A DNA stretch of 64,000 bases from Ostreococcus lucimarinus (Eukaryota): NCBI GenBank assembly GCA_000092065.1, contig CP000589.1. The stretch is one strand, 5' to 3'. Position 1 is the stretch's first letter. Each line of letters starts with the position of its first letter. The notes under the pieces were generated by a model. That model worked only from the letters and a program-made list of their open reading frames with translations, ran no database searches and had not been told where the DNA came from. Shown in pieces: positions 17,596 to 31,228 of the stretch. The position numbers and the translations under genes were made by a program.

Positions 17596-19620
17596 TTAGA
17601 TGGAGTGCGTGCGACGTATTCGTGTGGCATCGTACGACGCGCGCTTGGAAGCGTCCTTGAGCACCGCGTACGCCTCGGCGACGCGCTTGAAGAGCGCCTC
17701 AGACGCCGGCCGAACGGCGTCGCTCGGCGCCTTGTCGGGATGAAACTTCAGCGCGAGCGACTTGTACGCCTTACTCACGTCCGCCTTAGTCGCGCGGGAA
17801 CTCACACCGAGCACGGCGTAGTGCTCGCACGACGTTGCACCGTTCTTCACCTTGCGCTGCGCCTCGCGCAACTTCATCGCGCAGTCGTCGCCCATGTGCG
17901 GCGCGAGTTCCTCCAAATCTTTCATCGCCATCGGCCAGTCGCCCATGGACAAGTAAGCATCCGCTCGGCGCTGTAACGCGCGAATGTACGTGTCATCGAA
18001 CGTGCGAGAGACGCAGCACTCCATGACGGCGTCGCAAAACTTGCCCATGGCTTGAAGCGCGGCGGCTTTGTTCGCGTGAAGCACGGCGCGGAACGCTTGG
18101 TCATCGAAATCGATCGCCAAAGCATCAGCGTACGCTTGAAGCGCCGCATCGTACGCTTTGGCGTGAAAATTTTGATTACCCCGCACCTTGAGTTGTTCCG
18201 CTTGTTCTCGCAACGCACTGAGACGTTTCTTTGGCGACGGTCGCGTCGGCGTTCGCTGACGTCGCGGCGAAGGCTTCGCCTTTTGCGGAGTTTCACGCTT
18301 TGGTGGCGACGCTTTCGATGGTGTCGTCGTTGCCTTCGTTTCTGGAGAACTCGCGCGTCTGGGCGAGGACGCCTTACGGGGTGAGGCATCCGTGGCGAAC
18401 CTGACGAGCTTGGCGCGTTCTTGCTTCCACGACGCCTTGTGCAGGGCGAAAGCCTCACGCTCGCGTTCGAGCTCCTTCATGACCGCCGCTAACTTCGCAC
18501 TCAACGCCGAAGAATCACTATTATTCGAGTTTACACGCGAGCGAAGCGCGTCCAACTCCGAACGCGTCGCCGAGAGTTCCTTCTTACGAATGGCCTCGAT
18601 TTCTCGCGCTTTGCGCGCCTCCGCCCTGGCGCCCGCCAAAGCGTCGCGCAACTCGGCGTTCTCCGCCTTTAAGTCAGCCTGCGACGCGGTGACTTCTACG
18701 GACTCTTTCAAGGCGCGAACTTCATCCTTTTTCGACGCAAACGCGCTGACGAGCTTGGCGTTCTGCGACGCCATCTCCGCGAGCGCGTTTCTCGCCGACT
18801 TTCGCCCGTTGTCCAACTCTTGGCACTTCGCCGTCAGAGCCCCAACCTCTCTCTCCGCCGCCTCCGCGCGCTCGCGCATCAACTTCAGCGCGTTCTCAAA
18901 ATCCGTCCTCAGCGTCGCCTCGATCGCCTCGACGTCCGATCGTCTATACCGCGGCGAAGACGACGACGGCGACACTTTCCCCTCGCGCGCCGAACCGCTC
19001 GGCGACGCGTCCATCATCTCCCGATCCCCCGACGCGACGACGCCCCCCTCCGACCTCTCCCGTCGCCCTCCATTCGAATTTTTCACCCCACTTCGCATCA
19101 CCGCCGCCACCGTGCTCGCCGCTCGCGCCCGCATCGTCCGTCCTCCCTCGCGCTCCGCTCGCTCCGCCTCGCGAACCGCTCGCGCCACCGCGTCTTCCAT
19201 CCACGTCATCGTCTCCCGCCCCATCCCTCGCTCGCGTCCGACCGTCGCGCGCGAACCGTTTGTTGCATCGCGCGCCTCGCTCGTTCGTCCGTCTCGAGGT
19301 CGCGTCGCGCCGTTCGCGTCGTCGTCGTCGTCGCCGCGTCTCGCGTCGCCGTCCTTCGACCCCCTCGCCGCCGCGTCCGTTCGCATCCCATCCCGCGTCG
19401 CGTCGCGCTCGACGCCGCGATTCGTGAGATCGCGCATCGAGCGCGTGACTTTGCGCTGCAGCGCGCGCTCGGCGTCTCGAGCGCGGACGCGTGCGCGTTC
19501 GATCGCGCGGTCGATGGCGGTGGATGAACCGACACCGTTCGACGCGATGATGTTTGCGCTTCGCGCGTCGTCGTCGTCGCCGCGCGGGGACGCGCGACGG
19601 AACGTCGAGACGGAGGGCAT
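17596..19620 (-). CDS. TPR-repeat plus C-terminal J-domain co-chaperone (DNAJC7/TPR2-like), with an N-terminal coiled coil and a P/S/K-rich linker.
   Basis: TPR helices (LKVRGNQNFHAKAYDAALQAYADALAIDFDDQ...ANKAAALQAMGKF). J domain with HPD (HYAVLGVSSRATKADVSKAYKSLALKFHPDKAPS...ASYDATR). ATG at 19620. Confidence 0.75.
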   Translation of the reverse strand: MPSVSTFRRASPRGDDDDARSANIIASNGVGSSTAIDRAIERARVRARDAERALQRKVTRSMRDLTNRGVERDATRDGMRTDAAARGSKDGDARRGDDDDDANGATRPRDGRTSEARDATNGSRATVGRERGMGRETMTWMEDAVARAVREAERAEREGGRTMRARAASTVAAVMRSGVKNSNGGRRERSEGGVVASGDREMMDASPSGSAREGKVSPSSSSPRYRRSDVEAIEATLRTDFENALKLMRERAEAAEREVGALTAKCQELDNGRKSARNALAEMASQNAKLVSAFASKKDEVRALKESVEVTASQADLKAENAELRDALAGARAEARKAREIEAIRKKELSATRSELDALRSRVNSNNSDSSALSAKLAAVMKELEREREAFALHKASWKQERAKLVRFATDASPRKASSPRRASSPETKATTTPSKASPPKRETPQKAKPSPRRQRTPTRPSPKKRLSALREQAEQLKVRGNQNFHAKAYDAALQAYADALAIDFDDQAFRAVLHANKAAALQAMGKFCDAVMECCVSRTFDDTYIRALQRRADAYLSMGDWPMAMKDLEELAPHMGDDCAMKLREAQRKVKNGATSCEHYAVLGVSSRATKADVSKAYKSLALKFHPDKAPSDAVRPASEALFKRVAEAYAVLKDASKRASYDATRIRRTHSI

Positions 19621-19811
19621 TTTTACCGGCGCCCTCGCCGCGCGTCGCGCGCGCGCGGCTCGGGGCGCGTCGTGGAGTGCGGCGCGCGCGATCGATGTCG
19701 GTTCGTCGACTCAACGGGAAAAATCGGCGAGAGTTTGCGTGAATTGGCGAGGAAATGACTGAGCGTTTGCGACGCGCGAGGGTCTGCGTCTATCGCATCG
19801 CGCGACGCGCG

Positions 19812-21140
19812 CTACGACGCGCCCGCGCGCTGATCCACGAGCTTGGATTTGAGACCGACCTTTTCGTACTCCCTCTTCGTCGTCTCGATCGCGCGCGGGC
19901 TGGAATCGCGGAGGAATTCGCGCTCGCGGTCGGAGACGGCTTCGACGGCGACGGCGCGGAGACGCGTGTCAATCTTCAATCCAGCGTACGGGTCGCGCTT
20001 GGCGCCGGAGGCGTTCTGCTTTGTCGTCGTGCCGTTGTGGTGCGCGATCGTCGACGCGTCGACGCGCGCGGCCGATGCGTCGCTCGGCGGCTCGGCGCGA
20101 GACAGCGATTCGCTTCTCGAGACGCTGGGCGAAGCCGCGAAGAAGTCTTCGTCGGACGCGCCCGAATTGTTGCGCATAGAGCCCAGATCAGAGTCGGTGG
20201 GCTTCTTCCTCGGACGCGCGTGCCAATCGAAGGGTAAGCCCTCGGGTGGGAAATATCTAGACTTGCTAAATTGTTGCTCGCTGCGTTTCATCAAGTGCCA
20301 GCCCCACGCGCTCTGCGTCCGCCACCACAATCCGATCGCGACAGCCGCGACGCCGGTGACGATGGAACACGTCACCGTGGAGTACCAAAACTTCAACCAC
20401 GCGCTCAACGTGAGCGTGGTGAGAAACATCGGCACCCCGTACGTGAACATCCGAAACGCTTTTCGCCAATCCGCCTCGCATCGCGTCTCCCAATACCTCT
20501 CGAACGACCTCTGCGGCTGCGGCGGCGTGTCTCCCGGCGCGTACGACAGCGCAAATTTACGACACGCGTATAAAAACTCCGCCTCCTCGTCCTCGCTGAC
20601 GTACGACTTCCCATTCCTCAAAATATTACTCAACATGAACGAACACAGCACCATGGCGTTCAACATCAACGCCACCGTCACCGCCGTGGCTCCCGCGTAC
20701 GCCGCGATCAACGCCTCGCTCTGAAACGCCTTCACCGTCGGATCGCTGAACTGCAATTCCACCAGCGCCACGACCGCGAATCCACTGATCAACGCGCTCA
20801 GGTTCGACGTCGTTCGCAGTTGTTCGCCCTTCTCCTCCACGTCCCGTCTATTCTTCTCCGCGTACCGATTCCACACCCATCGCGCGTTCTCCAGCACGCG
20901 CTGCTCGACGTCTTGTCGTCGCCACTTCCGCTGCTCGTCCCTGTGGACGTGCTCGAGCTCCCACCAGTCGCGCTCTTCGACGCGAAATTCCAAATCTTCG
21001 CGTCGCCACTGTCGCTCTTCTTTCCGCCATTGTCGGTCCTCTTCGCGCCACGCGCGCGCGAGCGACGTGTCCAACGCGGTGAGAAACGCGGTGGCGGCGT
21101 CGCCGACGTCTCCGGCGCCGACGCCGGCGAACGACGGCAT
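19812..21140 (-). CDS. Orai / CRAC-channel-like four-TM calcium channel subunit.
   Basis: TM1 TTSNLSALISGFAVVALVELQFSD closely matches Orai1 TM1 ([21 protein letters not shown]), including the selectivity Glu. Three further TM helices follow (ATAVTVALMLNAMVLCSFMLSNIL; VPMFLTTLTLSAWLKFW; VTGVAAVAIGLWW). Start is placed at the ATG at 21140; the track ORF extends to 21503 but overlaps the divergent ATP-synthase promoter/exon. Confidence 0.7.
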   Translation of the reverse strand: MPSFAGVGAGDVGDAATAFLTALDTSLARAWREEDRQWRKEERQWRREDLEFRVEERDWWELEHVHRDEQRKWRRQDVEQRVLENARWVWNRYAEKNRRDVEEKGEQLRTTSNLSALISGFAVVALVELQFSDPTVKAFQSEALIAAYAGATAVTVALMLNAMVLCSFMLSNILRNGKSYVSEDEEAEFLYACRKFALSYAPGDTPPQPQRSFERYWETRCEADWRKAFRMFTYGVPMFLTTLTLSAWLKFWYSTVTCSIVTGVAAVAIGLWWRTQSAWGWHLMKRSEQQFSKSRYFPPEGLPFDWHARPRKKPTDSDLGSMRNNSGASDEDFFAASPSVSRSESLSRAEPPSDASAARVDASTIAHHNGTTTKQNASGAKRDPYAGLKIDTRLRAVAVEAVSDREREFLRDSSPRAIETTKREYEKVGLKSKLVDQRAGAS

Positions 21141-21174
21141 GCAGCGCGCGCGTCGTCGAATGCCGACGATGCGA

Positions 21175-21215
21175 TAAAACCCAAACCATATATATAATAA
21201 TCTAAACCCTCTATG
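21175..21215. promoter_or_regulatory. AT-rich island (CCATATATATAATAATCTAAACCCTCTATGTATGTATAT) in the divergent promoter between the Orai-like and ATP synthase delta genes.
   Basis: The only AT-rich stretch in the 21141-21297 intergenic region, between two divergent start codons. Confidence 0.25.
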
Positions 21216-21297
21216 TATGTATATCGCGAACACGCGCGCGACGCGAATGCGGACGCGCGGTTCGGCCGGCGCGCGCGCCCGCACACGCGCGCGCGCC

Positions 21298-21570
21298 ATG
21301 TCCACCACCGTCGCGCTGCGCCACGCGCGACGATGCGCGAAAACTCTCTTCGCCCGCACCGCCGCCCGCGCGAACACCGCGGCGTCGCAGGCGTCGATCG
21401 ACGCGTTCATGGAAAAGTTTGACGTCGCGAAGACGAGCCCGACGATGGACCGTCCGAGCACGCCCACGACGTTCGCGAGCGCGCCGGTCGAGGAGAGCGC
21501 CAAGGGAACGGCGGATAAGTTGAAGCTGAATTTCTACCTCCCGCACGAGGTGGCGCACGACGAGGAGGAG
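21298..21570 (+). CDS. ATP5D: Mitochondrial F1-ATP synthase delta subunit (ATP5D/ATP16), exon 1: presequence plus mature N-terminus.
   Basis: R-rich presequence MSTTVALRHARRCAKTLFARTAARAN, then KLKLNFYLPHEVAHDEEE, corresponding to MSFTFASPTQVFFNGANVRQ of ATP5D. Donor GAG|GTGCGCGAG at 21571. Confidence 0.7.
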
Positions 21571-21811
21571 GTGCGCGAGCGATGCGAGACGCGATGGGAC
21601 GGTGATCGCCCGATGGGGTTGCGGCCAACGAGTGGAAGGCGTGGGTTTGACCCGAACGCGAAGGAGACGCGCGCGAACGCGCGACGAGGCGCGGGTCGGA
21701 CGCGGCGCGCGCGGAACGATCGCGCGATGGTGGGATGGTGGCGCGCGGCGAGCGATGACGCGGGATCTCGGAGCGATGACTGACGGAACGACGAGCGTCG
21801 CGCGCGCGCAG

Positions 21812-22162
21812 GTGGACATGGTGCTCGTGCCGGCGACGACGGGGGACTTTGGAATCTTACCGGGACACGTGCCGACGGTTTCGCAGCTGCGACCGGGGGT
21901 GGTGAGCGTGCATTTGAACGATAAAGACGTGAAGAAATACTTCGTCAGCAGTGGATTCGCGTTCGTGCACGCGGATTCGACGGCGGATATTTGCGCCATC
22001 GAGGCGGTGCCGGTGGAGCAACTCGACGGGGACGCGGTGAGGAAAGGGTTGGCCGAGCATCAGGCGAAATTTACGAACGCGAAGGATGATTTCGAAAAGG
22101 CGAACGCGCAAATCGGTATCGATGTGTGCAACGCCATGGTGGCTGCGCTCGACGCCAAGTAG
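21812..22162 (+). CDS. ATP5D: Mitochondrial F1-ATP synthase delta subunit, exon 2.
   Basis: VDMVLVPATTGDFGILPGHVPTVSQLRPGVVSVHLNDKDVKKYFVSSGFAFVHADSTADICAIEAVPVEQLD matches ATP5D (VDVPTLTGAFGILAAHVPTLQVLRPGLVVVH...KYFVSSGSIAVNADSS). Acceptor CGCGCAG| at 21809..21811. Intron 21571..21811 (241 nt). The reading frame shifts from frame 1 to frame 2. Confidence 0.8.
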   Translation: MDMVLVPATTGDFGILPGHVPTVSQLRPGVVSVHLNDKDVKKYFVSSGFAFVHADSTADICAIEAVPVEQLDGDAVRKGLAEHQAKFTNAKDDFEKANAQIGIDVCNAMVAALDAK

Positions 22163-22212
22163 AGAGAAGTGTAAAGGAATATCGTTAAAAATGTACGTTG
22201 AACGGATTCGGC

Positions 22213-24717
22213 TCAGCCGGCGGCGCTCGCGATGACGATGGAACGGTCGGCACCGTTTACACCGCTCTTTTTCTTCCGCAACAACGCCAACTCGTCGTGC
22301 AACATCGTTAGTTCGTGCGTGTACGCGTCCTTGTGCGCGATGAACATCTTTAGCTCGCTTCGCAAGCCTTTGATTTGACGCGACTTTTCCTTGATGTGCG
22401 CGTGCGTCTCTCGTAGCTCCTCAAACGCTCGAGGTCCGGGTTGACGGGACAACACCACGCGAAGTTCGGCGAGTACTTTTGTTTTCTCGCTAATCAGAAT
22501 GTCTTTCGTCGTCACTTCTTCCGTTTTCGTGATCAGTTTGCGCTGCAACATTTGAACTTTCTGAATCAACTCGTACATAGTCGGATCGCTGCCTTTGAGC
22601 TGTCGCCAACGATGGACATTCATCGGATTCTCGAGTTCCTCGCTGAGTGCCTTAACTTTTGTGCGTTCGTGGAGAAGTTCGCGACCAAGCGTTTGGACTT
22701 CGTGCTTCAACGCATCGATGCTTGCCGCCGCTTCTCGCAGGGACGTGAGTTCTTGCGCGTGCGACGCCAATCTGAGCTTCAACGTTTTAATCTCGCGAAC
22801 GCGCTCACGATACTCGGCTTGGCCTTGATTCAAAATTTTCTGCTGAACCTTGACTTTCTCGTAAAGTAGCGCGCATTCTTGATTCCGCTGCACAAGTTGT
22901 GCGTTGAGAACGTCACGATCACGCTTGATGACATCGAGCTGCTTGCGATGCGCCTCGCGACTTTCTCGCAACGACGCCACAGATGAGCGTAGCGTCTTCG
23001 ATTCATCACTCGTATGCTTCAGAGACTCTTGCGTCTCGCGAAGCGTCGAGTTTAGCTTATCATTCTGTCGTCGTAGAGCATCGTGTTCTTTGTCCAACTT
23101 GCGATGCTCGAAACGCTCGCCCGCGATGACGGCGTCCTTCATTCTAAGTTCCTCGTGCAAACCTTCCATCGCCACAGTCTTGGCCTTGAAATCGCGTTTG
23201 ATCTCCGCAATTTGTGACTGGGCCTCGACGAGAGACTTTGATTGTTGATTGCGTTCCGCGCACACGACGTCGTACGCGTGCTCGGCTTGCTTAATTTTGC
23301 TTTCTGCATCTTGTAATTCTTGCCGTAAATCAACGATTTGAGACTGTCGATCATGAACGTCATCCTCCAACTTTTCCTGACGACGCACCGCCGCCGCGAT
23401 GTCCGCCAATAACTTTGCACGTTCTTGATCGAGACTTTTTATCTGCATCTCTTGCTTAACTTGTTCGCGTTTGTAACTCTTGATTTCGTTTTCGAGTGTT
23501 TGACGCTGCGCCTCATGAATACGCAGCAAATCTTGTTGCCGACTTGTGGCGTTCTGCGCCTGCGTAGTCGTCTTCAGAAGGACATCGCGCTCGCGCATAA
23601 GATCTTCTTTTCGCCTTTGCTCGTTATCTAAGTCTCTTTTTTGTTGCTCGAGACGTTGTTTGAGTAATTGAATCTCGCGCTTGAGCGCATTCTTTGCGTC
23701 GTCTGCGTTCAATTTCGTTTGCTCCGCCGCGCGGAGTTTAGACTCTAGTTGAGTGGACTTTTTTAAAGTACTCTCCTTTTCACGCTCGAGCGTTTTGATT
23801 TCATCGTTCAACGCTCGAATTTCGTGCATCTTGGCCGTGTTTGCATCCTCAGCACTCTTATTACTCGCGCGAGCTTCGTCAAGTTCGCGATGAAGCTTGT
23901 CAGATTTGCTCGCTAACACGTTCAACTCTTTCTGAGCCGCCTCTGTCCGTCGCTCTTGCAAACAAGTATCTTTTTCTAGCTTGATAATCATTTCGTCAGC
24001 CTTTGTTATCCTCGCTTTATACTCTCTGATCTCAATGTCGCGTTCTTCAGAGCGTTCCTGTACCTCGCGCATCTCGCGCTCGAGACGTTCCTTCGTGCGC
24101 TTTTGCCGCTCCACCTCCATCGCACTCGCGTGCGACAGATCACGTGCATTTTGTAATTCTACGTCTAAATCTAATTTCGTCGATTCAGCCTTTCTCGTTC
24201 GCTCCGATAGCTTATCGATATCCTCCCTGAGCCTGATGGTTTGCTCGAGTAATTCATCTCGTTCGGCGGTGAGACTCTCCTTGGCGCTCAGTAACGATTC
24301 AATCTCGCGCGAGTTCGCCCTTCGCGCACTCGCGCGCTCCATAAACAACCCATCACTGGTCGTCGTTTCGCAACCCCCTAGCTTGTCTTCATCTCGTGTC
24401 AGCCGTTCAATTTCCATCTTCAATTCGCTCGCCTCGCGCTTACTCGCCAACTCGCTCTCGTGCGATTCATCCACCATCGCCCACGCCTTCTCTAACTCTT
24501 CTTTGAGCGCATCGATGGTTGATTGATCTTCCCGCGACAAATCCAGCGTCATCATCATTTTCCTCGCCTGTCCGCGACACTCCTCCGCGAGCGTCGCGCA
24601 CTTTGCCGTCAACGCTCGCTCGCGCTCCGCGGCGTCCGCGAGCGCGGCCCTCACCTTATCGCACTCTTCTCGCACCTTGACCGCGCGCGCGTCGTCGCGC
24701 GGTAATTTTGATATCGC
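22213..24717 (-). CDS. Long coiled-coil protein, CCDC39/CCDC40-like (axonemal 96-nm ruler family), exon 2.
   Basis: About 830 aa of continuous coiled coil with a conserved C-terminal block (NPMNVHRWRQLKGSDPTMYELIQKVQMLQRKLITKTEEVTTKD...LSRQPGP). The track start at 24675 is a GTG. The frame stays open upstream to a CGCGCGCACAG| acceptor at 24718..24720. Confidence 0.6.
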   Translation of the reverse strand, partial: AISKLPRDDARAVKVREECDKVRAALADAAERERALTAKCATLAEECRGQARKMMMTLDLSREDQSTIDALKEELEKAWAMVDESHESELASKREASELKMEIERLTRDEDKLGGCETTTSDGLFMERASARRANSREIESLLSAKESLTAERDELLEQTIRLREDIDKLSERTRKAESTKLDLDVELQNARDLSHASAMEVERQKRTKERLEREMREVQERSEERDIEIREYKARITKADEMIIKLEKDTCLQERRTEAAQKELNVLASKSDKLHRELDEARASNKSAEDANTAKMHEIRALNDEIKTLEREKESTLKKSTQLESKLRAAEQTKLNADDAKNALKREIQLLKQRLEQQKRDLDNEQRRKEDLMRERDVLLKTTTQAQNATSRQQDLLRIHEAQRQTLENEIKSYKREQVKQEMQIKSLDQERAKLLADIAAAVRRQEKLEDDVHDRQSQIVDLRQELQDAESKIKQAEHAYDVVCAERNQQSKSLVEAQSQIAEIKRDFKAKTVAMEGLHEELRMKDAVIAGERFEHRKLDKEHDALRRQNDKLNSTLRETQESLKHTSDESKTLRSSVASLRESREAHRKQLDVIKRDRDVLNAQLVQRNQECALLYEKVKVQQKILNQGQAEYRERVREIKTLKLRLASHAQELTSLREAAASIDALKHEVQTLGRELLHERTKVKALSEELENPMNVHRWRQLKGSDPTMYELIQKVQMLQRKLITKTEEVTTKDILISEKTKVLAELRVVLSRQPGPRAFEELRETHAHIKEKSRQIKGLRSELKMFIAHKDAYTHELTMLHDELALLRKKKSGVNGADRSIVIASAAG

Positions 24718-24811
24718 CTGTGCGCGCGCGCGACGTCACGGCCGCGGTCAGTGCGTCGATCGCATCGTCTCGACGGTTCGCAGACTCGCCGAGAGCTTCC
24801 TAATATAGCAC

Positions 24812-24955
24812 CCGCGCGAGACGAAAGCGTGGGACGCCGACGCGCGCCGCACGCGCCTCGACGAACGCGTCCTCGTCATAATCACCAAGCGAGGTATCTC
24901 CTTCATCTAAGCTCGCTGTTTCGTCGTCGTCCGCGTCGTCTGCGTCCAAACTCAT
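24812..24955 (-). CDS. CCDC39/40-like gene, exon 1 (48 codons, acidic N-terminus).
   Basis: ATG at 24955. Encodes MSLDADDADDDETASLDEGDTSLGDYDEDAFVEARAARVGVPRFRLAR and ends at a GCG CGG|GTGCTA donor. Intron 24811..24718 (94 nt). The phase-0 join continues AISKLPRDDARAVKVREECDK. Coordinates were cross-checked against track ORF 24751..24978. Confidence 0.5.
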
Positions 24956-25073
24956 CGCGCGGCGTTGTGGGGGTTTGACGATTAATATCGCCGTGAAAAG
25001 AAAGGAGGTGCCCGGGTTGTTGCGCGAGCGCGCCAGACGCGACGACTCGTGCGCACGAAACGGGTTTCAAAGG

Positions 25074-27164
25074 TTAAAATCCATCTAGTCCGCGAGCAAA
25101 AGCTAAATCATCGAATTCGCGCGCGAGAGCGGCCACGGCGGTTCGGTCGATGCCGGGATTGCGGGAGAGCGTCGCGGCGAACGTGCGAGACGAGGACGAT
25201 TCCGCGAGACGGCGGACGGCGACGGCGGTGAGGTCACAGTCGGAGACGTCGAGCGTGTGCAAGTGAGGGAGATTGGGGAGAATATCGGTGATGGCGTCGA
25301 TGCCGTCATCGCCGATGTGGTTTCCGCGGAGGCTGAGGATCTCGAGGGGAGTAGGCGACGCGCCGGCGGCGGCGGCGGCGACGTCGAAGGCTTCGGTAAA
25401 ATCGTACGTGCCGCGCCATGAGATGACGTTCATGGACAGATCGCAACACTTTAGCATAGGAAAGTGACCATTTTGGAAGAGATTGGCCAGCGCTGGCATC
25501 GCCGAGTCGCCGATTCCGTTCGAACCAAGACGAAGAGTCTCGAGGCGACGCAGCGTTTTCAGCCCTCGAGGCGCTTCGCACAACCAAATCAATCCGTTAT
25601 CTCCTAGAGAACAACCACTCAGATCCAAGATCACGAGTGATTTCCCTATGGTTTCGAGATATGTAGAAAGCTCGGCCGCGCCGTTGGCGTCAAAACAATC
25701 GTTGCCGCTCAGATCGAGGTTTCGTAATTGTTCGCACCGCGCCACGAGTCTTGAAGCGACGTCGGCGCCGCCAATCGCGGACACGCCAACGTTCGCCAGA
25801 CGAAGCTCGCGCAAGCCAACAAATTCGATGTCACAGATTGATTTTATGCCTTCGTCGCCGATTGGGCAGAAGCTTACTTCGAAACATTCCAACTCGCGTG
25901 CGAGAGCGGGCGGAGGAAACCACGACTGTCGAAGCGCGACAATGGCTTGAGCGTTCAATCGGTCGCAACGGCTGAACTTTAAGCTCTTCAATCGACTGAC
26001 CCACGAGTTTGCAACGTTTCCACTCGAATTCGTCATCGCGTGCAAAATTTCCTCGTCGACATCCTCACCGATAATCTCCAAATCGCGCACGTCCGATTCG
26101 CAGAGAAAATCTCCCAAGGCGCGCCATCCGTCGACATCGAGCCAAGTTTCGCACAACTTCAACCTAATTAGCTTCACTCGTGACGCGTGTTTCGCAAACA
26201 CGTCGAGCAAACAACGAAGCGTGTCTTGATGTATTCTAAACGGCCCTTTCGCGTTAATCTCCAGACTCTCGATCGCGCCTCCGTGCGTCTCGAGTGTTGA
26301 ACACAAGTCATCAGCAAAGCGCTCCGTAAACGCGTCCGCGGGTGTGATCTTGAGCACGTTTAATTCAGCATCAAACCACTCACGAGCGCGTTTCGGCATT
26401 CTTGCTCGAATTTGCCCGCGCGCGCCGCACCCACCGCGTGTGATTTCGAACAAACAAGGTCGACCTTCCAACGATTCTTTGCGAGCGAGCTCGTCGAAAT
26501 CCGCCACGGGAATCAGCGTTGCGGTCCACCCACCGGCTACGATTGCCTCGTACAGCGCCCGATCCACGTGCGCCCAACGCGACACGTACGCGAGTAAAAG
26601 CATCCCATTATCACGCTCGAGCTTTGTGTGCACGACGTCTAACACATCGCGCGCCGATGCCTCGCTGTACACCACGTCGCTCGCGACGACGAGTGGAAAC
26701 GTTTTTCTCGCGAAATCATCTGCGTCCCCTCGCCCCCACTCCAGCGTCCCCGCCGTCGCGCTCCCGAGCGACGTCAATACATTGTCATCTACAAAGTTTC
26801 GATTCATCTCGATCGATCGCCGTAGATCGCTCGCGACGTCGGCGTTTCCGTCCGTCAGCGTCGTCTCGCGCGCGGCGCCGCTCAGCCAGCACAGCATCCC
26901 AGGCGTCCCCAGCCCCGCGCCGAGCTCGAGCACGCGCGAGCGCTCGACCACGATCGAGTATCCTTCGTCGCTGGCTAAATACGCGCAGAGCGCTGGGAGA
27001 GCGCGCCAGGCGACGCGTCCAGTCTCGTCGCACTCGGCGGTTGAAGTGTCTTCTGGAAAGAGTTTCGGACGCCGCGTGCGCACGCGCACGACTCCGCGAG
27101 GGGTTTTGAAGGCGTGCACGTCGACAATATCATCGTCGGCGCCGTCGGACGCGGTCGGGGTCAT
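25074..27164 (-). CDS. Fusion protein: N-terminal class I lysine methyltransferase (METTL21/FAM86, Methyltransf_16-like) plus C-terminal leucine-rich repeats (ribonuclease-inhibitor-like).
   Basis: MTase motifs VLELGAGLGTPGMLCWLSGA ... VVASDVVYSEA. The C-terminal half carries RI-type LRRs (LRELRLANVGVSAIGGADVA...LRNLDLSGNDCFDANGAAEL...LVILDLSGCSLGDNGLIWL...LRLGSNGIGDSAM...LSLRGNHIGDDG). The first ATG is at 27164; the track start at 27257 is a TTG. Confidence 0.65.
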   Translation of the reverse strand: MTPTASDGADDDIVDVHAFKTPRGVVRVRTRRPKLFPEDTSTAECDETGRVAWRALPALCAYLASDEGYSIVVERSRVLELGAGLGTPGMLCWLSGAARETTLTDGNADVASDLRRSIEMNRNFVDDNVLTSLGSATAGTLEWGRGDADDFARKTFPLVVASDVVYSEASARDVLDVVHTKLERDNGMLLLAYVSRWAHVDRALYEAIVAGGWTATLIPVADFDELARKESLEGRPCLFEITRGGCGARGQIRARMPKRAREWFDAELNVLKITPADAFTERFADDLCSTLETHGGAIESLEINAKGPFRIHQDTLRCLLDVFAKHASRVKLIRLKLCETWLDVDGWRALGDFLCESDVRDLEIIGEDVDEEILHAMTNSSGNVANSWVSRLKSLKFSRCDRLNAQAIVALRQSWFPPPALARELECFEVSFCPIGDEGIKSICDIEFVGLRELRLANVGVSAIGGADVASRLVARCEQLRNLDLSGNDCFDANGAAELSTYLETIGKSLVILDLSGCSLGDNGLIWLCEAPRGLKTLRRLETLRLGSNGIGDSAMPALANLFQNGHFPMLKCCDLSMNVISWRGTYDFTEAFDVAAAAAGASPTPLEILSLRGNHIGDDGIDAITDILPNLPHLHTLDVSDCDLTAVAVRRLAESSSSRTFAATLSRNPGIDRTAVAALAREFDDLAFARGLDGF

Positions 27165-27309
27165 TTCTGTGCTGTCATGGAGTCGGCGCGGGAGGCGCGC
27201 TGTGCCTCGGCGGTTGGACGCTCGGCGGCGAGTGGCTACTCTACGTTTGTGATACAAAACTATCGCCTAAAATCTACGTGCGATCGTGAAAAAAGTGCGT
27301 CTGTGACGC

Positions 27310-28392
27310 TCATTCGAAACAAAACGGTAAGGTGATGACGGACTCGGCATCGCGAGCCGGAAATTTCAACTCCAACAGCGCGCTCGCGATGTCGAGCATG
27401 ATGGCGTCGCGAATGTCCGTCTCACTCGGGAGCTCGGGCAAAGGAATCGGCGTCAGGGTATCGCACGTCCATCGTAGATTGGTCACCGCACCATCTGGAG
27501 CTACGGTGAGCGCGGCGCAAACCATGCCGCTCGCTCGGGGAAGCTCGACGAGACGTCCGTACAGTTCCCCGAGCGCGCCCTCGAGCGTCGGCGACGCGTC
27601 CTCCTCCGTCAATGCGCCAGAAAACGACGGTTCGGGGTCTTTAAACCATCCGTGTAGTACCAACCTTCCGTGCCTCGGATCTTGAGTCCCGAAAACTTCA
27701 GTGACGCCGTGCGGTAGGCGCGGGTCGAACGCCACGAGACGCCCAAACGTCGGCGCGATGGTCTCCATGATTTGCGACCGCTCGACGACCTCGCCGGCGT
27801 CAAAATTCTTCCAATAATTCAATCGCTCGGGGCGCATTATTTGCGTTTCACCGCCCCTAAAATGTGCGCCGTACGACCCATCCTCCGCGTCGTTCTTTGT
27901 CAAACTGAGCACGAAGGCCCACGGTCCGTGCGGCACATCGGCGTGCAACTCTTGCCGCATCCCGTGCACGTAACACGACATCCACACCGGCGTGATCGCC
28001 GAGCATCCCAACTCTCTCCGTCCGTACTCCAACAGCGCCTTTTCCAACTCGCCGTACCGCTCGGCGCCGAAATAGTCCTCCGCGGGCGTTCGCAGCAGCG
28101 TGTACTGATTCGGCACGTGCCAGTAATCCCACACGAACCGCTCCGGATCCACGCGCAGCGGATCGCGCGTGCGTCCATCGTACACGGCGCGCAAATCGTT
28201 CGCGAAATCGCTCACGAAGCCATCGACGACGCGCCAGTGCGTCGGTTTTTCCGCGATTTCCACGTCGAACCCAGCGTCCGCGTCGTCCTCGTTCGTCGCC
28301 CTTCGCGTCCCGCGCGCGCGCCGCGAGCGACGGCGCGTGCGCACCGTCGTTCCCGACGCGCGCGCGCGCGCGACGCTCGACAGCGCCGACAT
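27310..28392 (-). CDS. Conserved hypothetical protein, possibly of the 2OG-Fe(II) oxygenase superfamily.
   Basis: Non-repetitive 360-aa ORF. Candidate HxD...H iron-binding residues (ELHADVPHG ... RLPHGVTEV) and an aromatic-rich block (FVWDYWHVPNQYTLLRTPAEDYF). The functional call is tentative. Confidence 0.4.
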   Translation of the reverse strand: MSALSSVARARASGTTVRTRRRSRRARGTRRATNEDDADAGFDVEIAEKPTHWRVVDGFVSDFANDLRAVYDGRTRDPLRVDPERFVWDYWHVPNQYTLLRTPAEDYFGAERYGELEKALLEYGRRELGCSAITPVWMSCYVHGMRQELHADVPHGPWAFVLSLTKNDAEDGSYGAHFRGGETQIMRPERLNYWKNFDAGEVVERSQIMETIAPTFGRLVAFDPRLPHGVTEVFGTQDPRHGRLVLHGWFKDPEPSFSGALTEEDASPTLEGALGELYGRLVELPRASGMVCAALTVAPDGAVTNLRWTCDTLTPIPLPELPSETDIRDAIMLDIASALLELKFPARDAESVITLPFCFE

Positions 28393-28489
28393 GCGCGCCG
28401 GCGTGCGCGGTTTCGTCGCGGTTTCGTCGATCCTTTACATCAATTCGCGACGCACCGCGCGGCGTCGCGTCGCGCGCCCGTCGCGCGCG

Positions 28490-29314
28490 ATGCCGCCCAA
28501 GGGAAAGACGAATCTCCTCGCCGCGCGCATCAAGCGCGTGATGCAAAAGGACGAGGACGTGGGAAAGATCGCCGGCCCGGCGCCGATCGTCATGGGCAAG
28601 GCGTTGGAATTATTCGTCAAGCAGCTCGTGACGACGGCGAACGACGTCGCGGTGCTGCACGGGAGCAAGACGGTGAACGGGAGTCACCTGAAGGGCGCGG
28701 TGGCGATGGTGCCCGAGGCGTTCGATTTTTTGAGCGACATCGTGGAGAAGGCGAAGGATTTGGGACCGCCGCCGGATCTGCGCGCGGTGGAGGCGGAACT
28801 CAAGGCGGCGGTGGGGGGGAAAGGGAAGAAACGAGGGAAAAAGGAAGCGCAGGGAAGCTTGGGGGACTTGGATTTCGGCGGTGGGTCGTTGGATGCGGAT
28901 GATGGAGAGGATGAGACGGCGTCCGCGAAGCGGAAATCAAAGGCGAAAACCAAGGCGAAGCCGAAAGCCAAAGGACGAGCGAAGAAGGTTAAGAAGGAGG
29001 AGGATTTCATCGACGACGATGACGAGGAGTTCGTGGATGAAATGAGTGAAACTGATGAAGAATTTGATGCCGATGCGCCCGTGGAGCCGAGGGAGAAGCC
29101 GACGCGCGCGAGGTCGTCTCGCGCGACTCCGAAGAAGTACGTGGACGATTTCGTCGACGAAGACGAAGAAGACGAGGAGGCGCCAGTGAATCCCAGCGCA
29201 AAGGTGAAGGAGGAGCCCGTCGGTAATTTAGGCTCGCTTGATGTTCCGTTCGCTGGTGGATCGCTCGCGGCGGCGGCGCCAGACGTGGGCGAAGACGAGG
29301 ACGATTACGACTAA
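28490..29314 (+). CDS. DRAP1: Histone-fold transcription regulator NC2-alpha / DRAP1-like with a long K/E/D-rich tail.
   Basis: LLAARIKRVMQKDEDVGKIAGPAPIVMGKALELFVKQLVTTAN...NGSHLKGAV...FDFLSDIV parallels DRAP1 ([36 protein letters not shown]...TSHLKQCIE..FDFLKDLV). ATG at 28490; the track ORF is open from 28169. Confidence 0.7.
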   Translation: MPPKGKTNLLAARIKRVMQKDEDVGKIAGPAPIVMGKALELFVKQLVTTANDVAVLHGSKTVNGSHLKGAVAMVPEAFDFLSDIVEKAKDLGPPPDLRAVEAELKAAVGGKGKKRGKKEAQGSLGDLDFGGGSLDADDGEDETASAKRKSKAKTKAKPKAKGRAKKVKKEEDFIDDDDEEFVDEMSETDEEFDADAPVEPREKPTRARSSRATPKKYVDDFVDEDEEDEEAPVNPSAKVKEEPVGNLGSLDVPFAGGSLAAAAPDVGEDEDDYD

Positions 29315-29451
29315 TAAAGACTGGGCGCGACTAGCTCTAGCGACCGCGTGTGTACAATCATGTTGATTAAGAAATATGAATCTTCACTAGCGCTGGATAT
29401 GAAACAAGGAAAGATTCTAGCCGTATGTGCTGCGCAATTATGCTGCGAGCT

Positions 29452-29490
29452 GTGCGTGCGTGCGTGCGTGCGTGCGTGTGTGCGTGCTTT
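29452..29490. repeat. (GTGC)n / (TGCG)n tetranucleotide microsatellite in the 3' flank shared by DRAP1 and the LAMMER kinase (convergent genes).
   Basis: gtgcgtgcgtgcgtgcgtgcgtgcgtgtgtgcgtgc. Confidence 0.7.
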
Positions 29491-29506
29491 GGTGGGGCGC
29501 GAGCCC

Positions 29507-31228
29507 TCACGAGCGCGACTTCTCCAGACTCTTCGGTCGTAGTTGACTACCGTTGCGCGTGTTGATCTTCCAATCCATCTGATCGAGATTGACTGAAAAG
29601 AATGGGTGAGCCACCGCCTGATTCGACGTCAAGCGTCGCTTGGGGTCGAAATTGAGCAAGCGACTAATCAAATCGTAAAACAACTCTCGCGCCTCGCCCG
29701 CGAGCTGCTTGTCGATCAAGTTTCGAACGATGCCCGTTTTCCCGAGCGCGGCGTACGACTCGTTGTCAGTTTGATCATTTGGCCAATTCAACGATCCGTT
29801 GGTCGTGAAAAACTCGCTGTGCTTGTCCTTGGGCGCGCGTCTCGCGACGGCGACGGGGATGGCGCTTTCGAGGGCGTGTTGCATCATGGCCAAGTGCTCG
29901 AGGTTATCGTGGGTTTGAAATAACGCTTCACCCGTGAGAAGCTCGATCATTATGCATCCGATGGACCACATGTCGCACGGATACGACCAACCGAGGCCAA
30001 GAATGATTTCAGGGGCGCGGTAGTGTCGCGTCGATACTACGGCGCTGTGATGCCGTTCGACAAACGTCGTGCTCCCAAAATCAATCAAGCGAATCGTATG
30101 ATCGACTGGGACGCGATACGTGGCGTTTTCGAGGTACGAACTCGACATCAAGAGAATATTCTCGGGCTTCAAGTCCGTGTGCACGAGTCCGAGCGTGTGC
30201 AAGTATCGCACCGCTACGAGCGTCTGCTCGCAAAAGCTCTGCACCGTCTTCGGATGAAATGGCTTGTATCGATTCGATCGCAAAAAGTCATACAGACTCG
30301 GTCCGCACTTATCAAACACCATGCACACGTGTCCTTGATAATCGAACGCCCGCCTGAGCGCGATGCAATTGAACCGTTCGCCATCCCTCCGCGACGCGTC
30401 GCCCTCGGCGAGCGTCTTCAAGACTTCGATTTCCACCATCGCCGCGTCGCGATACTTTTGTACGTTTCGAATCACCTTGATCGCGCAGCGTCGCTCGGAT
30501 ATCGCGTCCCAGCATTCCAAAACCCTACCGAAAGTCCCCTCGCCGAGCAAAGAGATGATCTTGTACTCATTCGTCAGCGCGTCCCCGAGCGCGTATCGCA
30601 GGTGCCCATCGGCGTCGTTCGCTCGTCCCGCTCTCGCCCGCGTCGTCTTCTTTTCCATCTCCACGTTTCCCTCGATGTAAAACCGGGTCAGCTTGGTGCG
30701 TTTCGAGCGTGCATCGATCGTCGCCACCGCGGGCGGCGTATCTCCGTACGGCGTCCCCGTCATCGCGTCGCTCGACACCGTCGCCCCCCCCCGACGTCGC
30801 CTTATCTCCGACGCCTCCCGTCCCTCAAACAACACCTGCACCGCGCCCCCCTCCCCGCCCTCGCTCGACGTCGACGCCCCCGACGACGACTTCGACGATC
30901 GTCTCGAGCTCATCCCTCGCGTCGTCGTCGTCCCCGATCGCTTCCGTTTCCCTCCCTTCGTCGTCGGCGCCTTTTCCTCGCGTCCCGCGTCGTCCCGCGT
31001 CTCCATCGTCTTCCCCCCCTCTCCCATCGCGTTCGCCGTCTTCGCCCTCCGCCGCGCGCTCGCGCGCTTCCCGAGATCTCCCCCCATCGTCACCTCGCAC
31101 CCCGACGTCCCCGTCGTCGCGCTTCGCGTCGCCGTCGTCGATCGCGTCGCGCGTCCGCCGTCTCGAATCGCTCTCGCGTCGTCTCGAATCGCGCCTCCCG
31201 CGCGCGCGCGCCGCGTCGTCCCGCCCAT
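29507..31228 (-). CDS. LAMMER / CLK-family dual-specificity protein kinase with an R/S/G-rich N-terminal region.
   Basis: Kinase subdomains (LGEGTFGRVLECWD; AIKVIR; HTDLKPENILL; DFGS; SYPCDMWSIGCIM) and the LAMMER signature EHLAMMQHALE. ATG at 31228. Confidence 0.85.
   Translation of the reverse strand: MGGTTRRARAGGAIRDDARAIRDGGRATRSTTATRSATTGTSGCEVTMGGDLGKRASARRRAKTANAMGEGGKTMETRDDAGREEKAPTTKGGKRKRSGTTTTRGMSSRRSSKSSSGASTSSEGGEGGAVQVLFEGREASEIRRRRGGATVSSDAMTGTPYGDTPPAVATIDARSKRTKLTRFYIEGNVEMEKKTTRARAGRANDADGHLRYALGDALTNEYKIISLLGEGTFGRVLECWDAISERRCAIKVIRNVQKYRDAAMVEIEVLKTLAEGDASRRDGERFNCIALRRAFDYQGHVCMVFDKCGPSLYDFLRSNRYKPFHPKTVQSFCEQTLVAVRYLHTLGLVHTDLKPENILLMSSSYLENATYRVPVDHTIRLIDFGSTTFVERHHSAVVSTRHYRAPEIILGLGWSYPCDMWSIGCIMIELLTGEALFQTHDNLEHLAMMQHALESAIPVAVARRAPKDKHSEFFTTNGSLNWPNDQTDNESYAALGKTGIVRNLIDKQLAGEARELFYDLISRLLNFDPKRRLTSNQAVAHPFFSVNLDQMDWKINTRNGSQLRPKSLEKSRS

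Follow-up and report, generated by a model that had tools for sequence, protein, structure and literature searches.

A protein of four predicted membrane helices, encoded on contig CP000589.1 of Ostreococcus lucimarinus, raises the question of whether this alga carries a Ca2+ channel pore of the Orai type and, if so, how such a pore would be opened in a lineage reported to be without STIM. We analysed the gene within a window of 64,000 nucleotides, the whole stretch of DNA under study, in which an earlier note had picked out an Orai/CRAC-channel homologue.

A complete Orai gene

The coding sequence occupies exactly the interval in which the homologue had been placed (19812..21140, minus strand, as are all features of the gene given below). 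It is a complete single exon of 442 codons plus the stop, running from the ATG at 21140 to the stop codon at 19812-19814 with no need for an intron. The translation is 100% identical over its 442 residues to XP_001419702.1 (UniProt A4S279, "predicted protein") of Ostreococcus lucimarinus CCE9901, which bears out the plastid-bearing alga proposed as its source. Many orthologues with 65-75% identity were found on Mamiellales contigs, near-identical metagenomic copies are named 'calcium release-activated calcium channel protein 1' by JGI, and 532 related cluster representatives were recovered. The RefSeq identity and the Mamiellales orthologues indicate a real, expressed-type gene. With its sequence in GenBank and RefSeq, the gene is already known and as a gene find adds nothing new.

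ORF callers extend the gene upstream to give a product of 532 or 563 amino acids. We rejected these longer models because the extension crosses an AT-rich intergenic region and overlaps the start of the ATP synthase gene, and because the RefSeq model also begins at the ATG at 21140. The divergent intergenic region (21141..21298, 158 bp) separates the Orai start codon from the start of the gene for the mitochondrial ATP synthase delta subunit (Pfam ATP-synt_DE_N) and is presumed to act as a shared promoter. The neighbours scanned, over a stretch of about 20 kb, encode a TPR-DnaJ protein, the ATP synthase delta subunit, a CFAP58-like protein, a methyltransferase-LRR protein and a kinase; none of them is related to Ca2+ or a STIM candidate, and they give no functional hint.

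Family membership was assessed with the Pfam Orai-1 profile (PF07856), as the earlier note had proposed. The protein matched it with 181.5 bits (E = 1.4e-53; gathering cut-off 25 bits) across residues 94-287. Because profile positions 2-172 of 173 were covered, the similarity is not confined to a short TM1 segment, the outcome that would have told against the assignment. In a phmmer search of the PDB the only significant sequence matches were Drosophila Orai crystal chains. Their pairwise alignment, at E about 5e-4, spans residues 105-173 and is restricted to TM1-TM2, which taken alone would have counted against the assignment; once the profile and the predicted fold are considered, the match takes in all four transmembrane helices. 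The AlphaFold2 monomer model (pLDDT 88-97 across TM1-TM4) places helices at residues 9-128, of which the C-terminal part is TM1, 142-180, 213-250 and 255-289, in an Orai arrangement that agrees with the four-TM protein described earlier. Using this model as the query, Foldseek returned Drosophila Orai (6bbg/6bbi/7kr5) as its top four matches in the PDB with a probability of 1.00, a TM-score on the target of 0.61-0.81 and an rmsd of 2.9-6.1 Å. Judged by the profile and the model, this is a member of the Orai family with the same predicted four-TM fold as metazoan Orai1 and Drosophila Orai (PDB 4HKR, 6BBF-6BBI, 7KR5). The locus is best read as the nuclear gene for the pore-forming Orai-family subunit of Ostreococcus lucimarinus.

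Pore and STIM-coupling residues

Alignment with a validated human Orai1 sequence and with the Drosophila channel placed the TM1 pore helix at residues 110-131 (20748..20813). Residues 112-133 (SNLSALISGFAVVALVELQFSD) are identical to human Orai1 residues 90-111 at 13 of 22 positions, an identity in sequence that is far above chance. The likeness to metazoan TM1 remarked on in the earlier note, including its pore glutamate, holds: the selectivity-filter residue E128 (codon 20757-20759) aligns with human E106 and fly E178, L117 with L95, the glycine hinge G120 with G98, and the hydrophobic gate positions F121 and V124 with F99 and V102. The motif S-A-L-x-S-G-F-A-x-V-A-x-V-E-x-Q, with the filter glutamate, V/F gate and glycine hinge, is shared with animal Orai. 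G120, F121 and L117 are each kept in 81 of 82 relatives and V124 in 75 of 82, and the filter position is Glu in 70 and Gln in 12. Mamiellales, Bryopsis and Cymbomonas have Glu, whereas the Gln sequences retrieved are streptophyte-like and chlorophycean-like.

TM2 (residues 142-176, 20613..20717; AlphaFold2 helix 142-180) carries M159 at the site of human H134. TM3 (residues 225-250, 20391..20468), placed by alignment to human Orai1 and column counts, shares with animal Orai W225 (human W176), G235 (G183) and the WxKF motif, W248-x-K250-F251 being the human WVKF; T242 replaces E190, a site occupied by T or N family-wide. TM4 and its cytosolic extension form one predicted helix (residues 255-289, 20274..20378) that reaches about 14 residues past the membrane and gives way to a Pro-containing, low-confidence coil. 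W272, T275, Q276, W279, G280 and H282 are conserved, and the conserved post-TM4 sequence reads W-x-TQ-xx-WG-WH ... GLPFDWH. If the Drosophila and human channels are a guide, and they serve as such here for membrane location and oligomeric state as much as for conduction and selectivity, the protein would be a hexamer whose TM1 helices line the pore and conduct Ca2+ selectively into the cytosol.

The basic inner-pore/ETON residues needed for STIM1-dependent opening of human Orai1 are not retained. R91 is replaced by N113, K85 by Q107 and R83 by G105, so that, compared with animal Orai, the basic ring is down to one residue, R109 at the site of K87. The same pattern is seen family-wide, with N at the R91 site in 74 of 82 relatives, K or R at the K87 site in 81, Q at the K85 site in 79 and S or G at the R83 site in 75. 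H134, the gating 'steric brake' of human Orai1 (residue roles from PMC7825772), is replaced by M159, and Met is found here in 76 of 86 relatives. The TM1-TM2 loop has one acidic residue, D133, against D110, D112 and D114 in human Orai1. Both the LVSHK nexus and the long C-terminal coiled-coil helix that binds STIM1 (L273/L276) are absent, human Orai1 residues 261-291 having no counterpart in the MAFFT alignment. In human Orai1, STIM1-mediated activation is lost and pore hydration falls when the basic inner-pore residues are neutralised (PMC7825772); going by these effects, a pore with Asn in place of R91 might conduct poorly or differently. With green algae reported to lack STIM and the coupling residues replaced family-wide, gating of this channel by STIM is very unlikely.

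The earlier note had also presented the homologue as special, on the grounds that Orai is characteristic of metazoa and absent from land plants. In comparative studies Orai is regarded as largely pan-eukaryotic and as probably going back to the last eukaryotic common ancestor (PMC7016017; PMC7935092), with T. brucei being without Orai according to the T. brucei paper. Absence from land plants is wrong, because reviews state that Orai is present in non-flowering land plants and we retrieved homologues from Selaginella moellendorffii and several Sphagnum; only angiosperms lack it, and Orai persists up to gymnosperms (PMC8318260; PMC11894410). A homologue with its pore glutamate is what stands of that framing; the metazoan-only distribution and the land-plant absence do not. 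On the STIM partner asked about in the note, the literature had already given a negative answer, for green algae as for early plants (PMC11085791; PMC8318260). As cited in PMC8318260, PMC7016017, PMC11085791 and PMC11894410, the green-lineage Orai reports of Collins & Meyer (2011) and Edel et al. (2017) have Orai present and STIM absent in green algae and non-flowering land plants. The Orai reported from Chlamydomonas reinhardtii (Cre01.g025000), Physcomitrella and Selaginella are of the same family and likewise STIM-less. STIM-less Orai in green algae is thus known, in reviews since 2011-2017, and the find is in this respect ordinary. The literature search returned no functional study of a plant, algal, protist or other non-animal Orai.

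Modules conserved outside animals

Alignments of 28 and 86 relatives, among them Selaginella, Closterium, Tetradesmus, Bryopsis and Cymbomonas, showed several modules conserved outside animals, for which no prior description was found in the literature searched. One is the N-terminus, where about 100 residues are predicted to form a charged heptad helix in place of the Pro/Gly-rich disordered segment of animal Orai. At its far end, column counts mark out a hydrophobic tip motif (residues 16-28, ATAFLTALDTSLA, 21057..21095; pLDDT 79-91), whose consensus AFLTALDTSL is common to sequences from Mamiellales through Selaginella and Closterium. The W/R/E heptad array (residues 29-94, 20859..21056) lies outside the Pfam Orai-1 domain and is predicted to be an uninterrupted cytosolic helix. 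Its register (a = W/F, b = R, d = E, e = D/E, f = R) is conserved across the 28 relatives, with significant periodicity of aromatic (p = 0.002) and acidic (p = 0.001) residues, and its DNA contains a 21-bp repeat at 21004-21051. AlphaFold2 models residues 9-128 as a single helix (pLDDT 91-97), in which about 100 N-terminal residues are continuous with TM1 over a length of about 15 nm. The N-terminal helix has 28 possible i+3/i+4 salt bridges, against 20.9 ± 3.6 in shuffled sequences. A classical coiled coil was rejected because the 'd' positions are acidic and not hydrophobic, so the array does not follow the canonical a/d pattern; the closer resemblance is to an ER/K-type single helix that carries a stripe of aromatic residues. 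The model is of a monomer, and in the oligomer this straight 120-residue helix could alternatively be folded back or form a coiled coil.

Between the array and the pore, where animal Orai has the ETON and basic inner-pore segment, lies a near-invariant pre-TM1 motif (residues 95-109, EKNRRDVEEKGEQLR, 20814..20858) that ends in R109. E95, R98, R99, E102 and E103 of its EKNRRDVEEK core are invariant, and K96, N97, D100, V101, K104, E106, Q107 and L108 are conserved in at least 90% of sequences. The cytosolic TM2-TM3 loop (residues 177-224, 20469..20612) is about 30 residues longer than in animal Orai, opposite a gap in human Orai1, and contains a short helix at 183-198. This insert is without a counterpart in animal Orai and is modelled at pLDDT 85-91; G177, C193, P206, P207, P209, R211, F213, W217 and C221 are invariant or nearly so.

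The C-terminal tail is otherwise disordered around a short linear motif, GLPFDWHARP (residues 301-310, 20211..20240), which alignment traces from Mamiellales to Selaginella, Closterium and Chlorophyceae. G301, P303, F304, D305, W306 and H307 are each present in 79-82 of 86 sequences; the monomer model has a pLDDT of about 50 here, and any role for GLPFDWH is a guess. A Ser/Asp/Pro-rich linker follows (residues 311-392, 19965..20210), predicted to be disordered (pLDDT 32-45), poorly conserved and variable in length and sequence among relatives. AlphaFold2 then predicts distal helices (residues 393-441, 19818..19964) at 393-400, 404-412, 415-428 and 433-441 with pLDDT 68-81, and within them an E-x-x-F-x-R-x-x-S-P-R-A motif (about residues 406-417) is conserved in Mamiellales. 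This long disordered tail ending in an SPRA-containing helical segment is an extra of Mamiellales Orai relative to other green Orai. The heptad helix, EKNRRDVEEK, the loop-2 module and GLPFDWH are shared by relatives from Selaginella, Closterium, Tetradesmus, Chlorella, Polytomella and Sphagnum.

A second, non-green clade of non-animal Orai (P0194, P0206, P0212, P0227, P0229, P0238, P0242 and P0249) consists mostly of metagenomic proteins, one of them labelled Batrachochytrium salamandrivorans. Each of them passes Pfam Orai-1, its domain beginning only at about residue 60-75, and each has a charged heptad-type N-terminal extension of 60-80 residues. They differ in having REIDEKNEQL in place of EKNRRDVEEKSEQL and another TM2-TM3 loop, and they have no GLPFDWH.

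Gating and its alternatives

The reading that we favour, and consider probable, is that the Orai pore is selective for Ca2+ and opens independently of STIM, by way of the conserved non-animal modules; the gating part of this reading we infer. The N-terminal helix, the EKNRRDVEEK collar, the enlarged TM2-TM3 loop and GLPFDWH, all conserved across Viridiplantae, would together form a gating and regulatory module. Rearrangement of the N-terminal helices and of the loop-2 collar under the pore would govern opening, in answer to a putative signal or partner, from the cytosol or carried by an organelle, that docks on GLPFDWH, the helix tip or both. A stronger form of this proposal, which we offer tentatively and as possible rather than probable, is that the rigid helix of about 15 nm with its hydrophobic tip, the sub-pore collar, loop 2 and GLPFDWH are a built-in activation apparatus by which non-animal Orai replace STIM.

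Alternatively, the protein could be a genuine store-operated channel whose ER Ca2+ sensor, either non-homologous to STIM or too divergent to be recognised, docks on GLPFDWH or the helix tip. The ER-plasma membrane junction gap is on the order of 15 nm, as is the predicted helix, and a short linear motif conserved across Viridiplantae within a disordered tail is a typical partner-binding site. Reviews also reason that an associated Ca2+ sensor of some kind is to be expected in any organism with Orai (PMC11085791). No candidate sensor is known, however, nothing sensor-like occurs among the neighbours scanned over about 20 kb of the 64-kb window, and the literature searched contains no demonstration of store-operated entry in any green alga, so that we regard this alternative as rather unlikely.

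We hold it to be distinctly unlikely that the protein is a release or leak channel of an internal membrane (ER, vacuole or acidocalcisome, or chloroplast envelope). Such a location would fit the Orai-derived sister family Jiraiya/TMEM221, which is described as ER-located (PMC7016017), and the long, highly charged N-terminus, unlike that of animal plasma-membrane Orai. Yet the pore chemistry is of the plasma-membrane Orai type, and the N-terminus begins MPSFAGVGAGDVGDAATAFL... and passes at once into the confident charged helix, neither a signal nor a transit peptide being obvious on inspection.

A non-conducting regulatory or scaffolding role, as proposed for Jiraiya/TMEM221, is highly improbable. 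Human Orai1 E106Q is non-conducting, and 12 relatives have Gln at the filter; here and in 70 of 82 relatives, however, the filter glutamate is kept, together with the whole hydrophobic gate. Jiraiya (PF15038), a metazoan Orai-derived family with a distantly related four-TM fold, matched weakly over TM3 and below threshold (13.3 bits against a cut-off of 27, E = 0.063), but the Orai-1 score is 168 bits higher and Jiraiya is without the Ca2+-binding pore residues (PMC7016017) that the Ostreococcus protein keeps. Finally, a chance resemblance in a spurious ORF, conceivable in a GC-rich window (about 0.51-0.73 in 2-kb bins) with many long overlapping spurious ORFs, has practically no prospect of being right and is refuted by the E-value of 1.4e-53 against a curated full-length profile, the identical RefSeq model, the 532 cluster representatives and the Orai fold match.

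Returning to the built-in activation apparatus, if it is real the channel itself would reach the partner or membrane and the signal would pass straight down TM1. In animals the arrangement is the reverse, STIM reaching from the ER to Orai. As it also occurs in the second, non-green clade, the heptad helix could be an ancestral eukaryotic design that was replaced in animals at the rise of STIM. Ostreococcus is genetically tractable, and the N-terminal heptad helix, EKNRRDVEEK, the loop-2 insert, GLPFDWH and M159 in place of H134 offer targets for mutation. The residual value of the find is as a compact, intron-free representative, bearing the filter glutamate, for a question stated in reviews, namely how Orai is gated, and whether store-operated Ca2+ entry exists, in a photosynthetic lineage without STIM (PMC11085791; PMC8318260; PMC11894410).

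Identity and genomic setting of the Orai gene

The gene is an uninterrupted ORF on the reverse strand (19812-21140, -), with its ATG at 21140 and stop codon at 19812-19814. The encoded protein of 442 amino acids is 100% identical across all 442 residues to the Ostreococcus lucimarinus CCE9901 entry XP_001419702.1 (A4S279), annotated there as a 'predicted protein'. This places the window on an O. lucimarinus chromosome and confirms that the gene comes from a plastid-bearing alga. The reading frame remains open 5' of the ATG as far as 21503. We rejected a model extended to this point, which crosses the AT-rich 158-bp intergenic spacer (21141-21298) and is missing from the RefSeq annotation. Because of this open frame, automatic callers working on metagenomes and Logan assemblies produced versions of 532 or 563 amino acids (cluster members P0001 and P0094-P0101); these inflated models take in translated intergenic sequence, and domain or signal-peptide predictions made from them could go astray. 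Near-identical metagenomic copies bear the JGI name 'calcium release-activated calcium channel protein 1'.

The Pfam Orai-1 profile (PF07856) scored 181.5 bits on the protein (gathering cut-off 25; E = 1.4e-53) and covered profile positions 2-172 of 173, so the similarity is not restricted to a short segment. A sequence search of the PDB returned Drosophila Orai chains as the only significant matches, in an alignment limited to TM1-TM2 (E ~5e-4). In an AlphaFold2 prediction that used an alignment of 86 relatives, pLDDT was 88-97 across TM1-TM4. Using this predicted model as the Foldseek query against the PDB, the best four matches were Drosophila Orai (6bbg, 6bbi, 7kr5; probability 1.00, TM-score on target 0.61-0.81, rmsd 2.9-6.1 Å), and all matches below these were long-helix proteins aligned to the N-terminal helix. 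By profile, PDB sequence and predicted fold, the protein belongs to the Orai family.

The earlier note therefore identified the gene correctly, but its claim of novelty does not hold, the gene being already deposited and its STIM-less Orai family of the green lineage already described. Its view that Orai typifies metazoa and that land plants lack it is inaccurate given the published distribution: Orai has a largely pan-eukaryotic distribution and probably goes back to the last eukaryotic common ancestor (PMC7016017, PMC7935092), and the green lineage retained it up to gymnosperms, angiosperms alone being without it (PMC8318260, PMC11894410, PMC7016017). Chlamydomonas reinhardtii has one Orai (Cre01.g025000) that preserves many important sequence features, and no STIM, suggesting that Orai arose earlier and is gated there by other means (PMC8318260, which cites Collins & Meyer 2011 and Edel et al. 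2017). The question of a STIM partner, also raised in the earlier note, is an acknowledged problem in the green lineage rather than a new one. Functional studies of Orai from outside the animals were absent from the literature that we searched.

The neighbouring genes were assigned by Pfam. A TPR-DnaJ protein (17596-19620, -; 674 aa, TPR with a C-terminal DnaJ domain) begins just ~190 bp beyond the end of the Orai ORF, an example of how very tightly genes are packed in this genome. Across the 158-bp spacer lies the divergent gene for the mitochondrial ATP synthase delta subunit (~21299-22162, +; ATP-synt_DE_N). Its coding frame shifts between ORFs 21217-21783 and 21602-22162, indicating an intron from ~21559 in a region that is otherwise intron-poor. 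The next ORF (22213-24675, -; 820 aa) matched the central coiled coil of CFAP58, a cilia- and flagella-associated protein (PF21771, 150.4 bits, E = 7.5e-44). Ostreococcus is non-flagellate, and the ORF may represent a ciliary-type gene kept for another role. A Methyltransf_16-LRR protein (25074-27257, -) and a protein kinase (29507-31228, -) follow. The Pfam content of these five neighbours (17596-31228) gave no functional hint for the Orai gene.

Pore and STIM-coupling residues compared with human Orai1

The human Orai1 reference sequence, validated by its match to Drosophila Orai (238 bits) and to the PDB Orai1 peptides 2MAK and 4EHQ, was aligned using MAFFT; TM1 aligned gap-free with a numbering offset of 22. 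In TM1, human L95, G98 and F99 correspond to L117, G120 and F121 (each the same in 81 of 82 relatives), V102 to V124 (75/82) and the selectivity-filter residue E106 to E128 (70/82). Human W176, G183 and WVKF (TM3) are represented by W225, G235 and W248-x-K250-F251, also conserved among relatives. Among the basic inner-pore positions, K87 is the only one kept, as R109; R91 is replaced by N113 (N in 74/82), K85 by Q107 (Q in 79 relatives) and R83 by G105 (S or G among relatives). Likewise, H134 is replaced by M159 (M in 76/86) and E190 by T242 (N or T among relatives), and the TM1-TM2 loop has one acidic residue compared with three in human Orai1. No counterpart of the LVSHK nexus or of the STIM1-binding L273/L276 coiled-coil helix was found in this alignment; in the predicted model the helix after TM4 runs for ~14 more residues and then gives way to a Pro-containing, low-confidence coil.

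In human Orai1, the basic residues and K85 are required for STIM1-mediated opening and pore hydration, the nexus is indispensable for STIM1 coupling, and H134 is a steric brake whose smaller substitutes open the channel (PMC7825772). Set against these roles, the residue map indicates that the permeation pathway looks animal-like, whereas the STIM-coupling determinants of human Orai1 are missing at the sequence level. More speculatively, M159 at the H134 position could leave the resting state closed less tightly than in animals.

Conserved cytosolic modules and a putative gating mechanism

Alignments of 28 and 86 relatives, comprising many marine-metagenome Mamiellales together with named Selaginella, Closterium, Bryopsis, Tetradesmus and Cymbomonas, revealed four conserved modules: an N-terminal helix, a sub-pore collar, the TM2-TM3 loop and the motif GLPFDWHARP. 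The first module starts with the conserved AFLTALDTSL motif (residues 16-28) and continues as a heptad array (residues 29-94; REEDRQW, RKEERQW, RREDLEF, RVEERDW, etc.) in a register conserved family-wide (a = W/F, b = R, d = E, e = D/E, f = R), with seven-residue periodicity exceeding that of shuffled sequences (aromatic p ~0.002, acidic p ~0.001). The collar (residues 95-109, EKNRRDVEEKGEQLR) is almost invariant and occupies the place of the animal ETON/basic segment. The enlarged TM2-TM3 loop (residues 177-224) includes a short helix and the invariant or near-invariant G177, C193, P206, P207, P209, R211, F213, W217 and C221. GLPFDWHARP (residues 301-310) lies within an otherwise disordered tail, its core residues present in 79-82 of 86 sequences.

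AlphaFold2 predicted residues 9-128 as a single continuous helix (pLDDT 91-97), so that the heptad array would lead directly into TM1; the cytosolic part would measure ~15 nm (~100 residues x 1.5 Å). Compared with human Orai1, the N-terminus is 45% rather than 20% charged, has nearly no Pro/Gly where the human one has 23, and shows a heptad periodicity that the human N-terminus lacks. A classical a/d coiled coil was rejected because the 'd' positions are acidic; the array instead resembles an ER/K-type stable helix bearing an aromatic stripe. At the DNA level, a 21-bp tandem repeat (21004-21051; 2.3 copies, 77% match) lies inside the heptad coding sequence, suggesting that the protein repeat originated by DNA duplication, traces of which persist.

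The protein is probably an Orai pore subunit of a Ca2+ channel that is not gated by STIM. Judged from sequence and predicted structure, it has the family's fold and has kept the selectivity filter and hydrophobic gate; by analogy with animal channels, it would assemble as a hexamer whose Ca2+-selective pore is lined by TM1. We infer that the conserved cytosolic apparatus would gate this pore without STIM: since the N-terminal helices would form one rigid unit with TM1, rearrangement of these helices, of the EKNRRDVEEK collar or of loop 2 beneath the pore would pass directly to the gate. Candidate docking sites for a partner or an adjacent subunit are the helix tip and GLPFDWH. That the protein is instead a true store-operated channel, gated through a non-homologous ER sensor, is conceivable but doubtful. 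A location in an endomembrane rather than the plasma membrane is improbable, and a non-conducting Orai-like protein very improbable indeed. Chance similarity to Orai is excluded.

Spread of the design among non-animal Orai

When 1.84 billion cluster representatives were scanned exhaustively with HMMER, 532 matched at E <= 1e-3; the stricter thresholds of 1e-10 and 1e-30 left 237 and 60, respectively. In many of the distant matches the alignment began at query residues 10-40 and ran onward from there. Named relatives include Chlorella vulgaris, Tetraselmis striata, Polytomella parva, Asterochloris, [Myrmecia] bisecta and several Sphagnum species. The trebouxiophyte [Myrmecia] bisecta protein (P0149, KAK9828657.1, 532 aa) contains two complete tandem Orai units, in each of which a pre-TM1 motif, four TM helices and a GLPF(D/A)WH motif are present. 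It is either a concatenated dimer that occurs in nature or a product of fused gene models.

At the E128 column, Gln replaces the filter Glu in 12 relatives (P0066-P0068, P0070-P0072, P0076-P0079, P0081, P0082), which are streptophyte-like (Selaginella, Closterium; '...VVTLTQF') or chlorophycean-like (Tetradesmus; '...AFLQF'); Mamiellales, Bryopsis and Cymbomonas retain Glu. Provided that the alignment is correct, Orai may be non-Ca2+-selective, or non-conducting, in the animal sense throughout much of the land-plant and Chlorophyceae branch.

A second Orai clade (P0194, P0206, P0212, P0227, P0229, P0238, P0242, P0249) differs from Ostreococcus Orai in being without GLPFDWH and in having REIDEKNEQL ahead of TM1, but shares a charged heptad-type extension of 60-80 residues before the Pfam domain; the members scanned (all but P0242) exceed the Pfam threshold. 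One of them, P0249 (KAH9258406.1, 280 aa, 86.6 bits), is deposited under the chytrid fungus Batrachochytrium salamandrivorans; it represents either a true Orai of chytrids or contamination, its clade being found otherwise only in unnamed metagenomic contigs. Since this clade also carries the extension, the long N-terminal helix may be an old trait shared generally by non-animal Orai, and not one that the green lineage invented. Tentatively, a self-contained gating apparatus built on this helix may even be ancestral to eukaryotic Orai.
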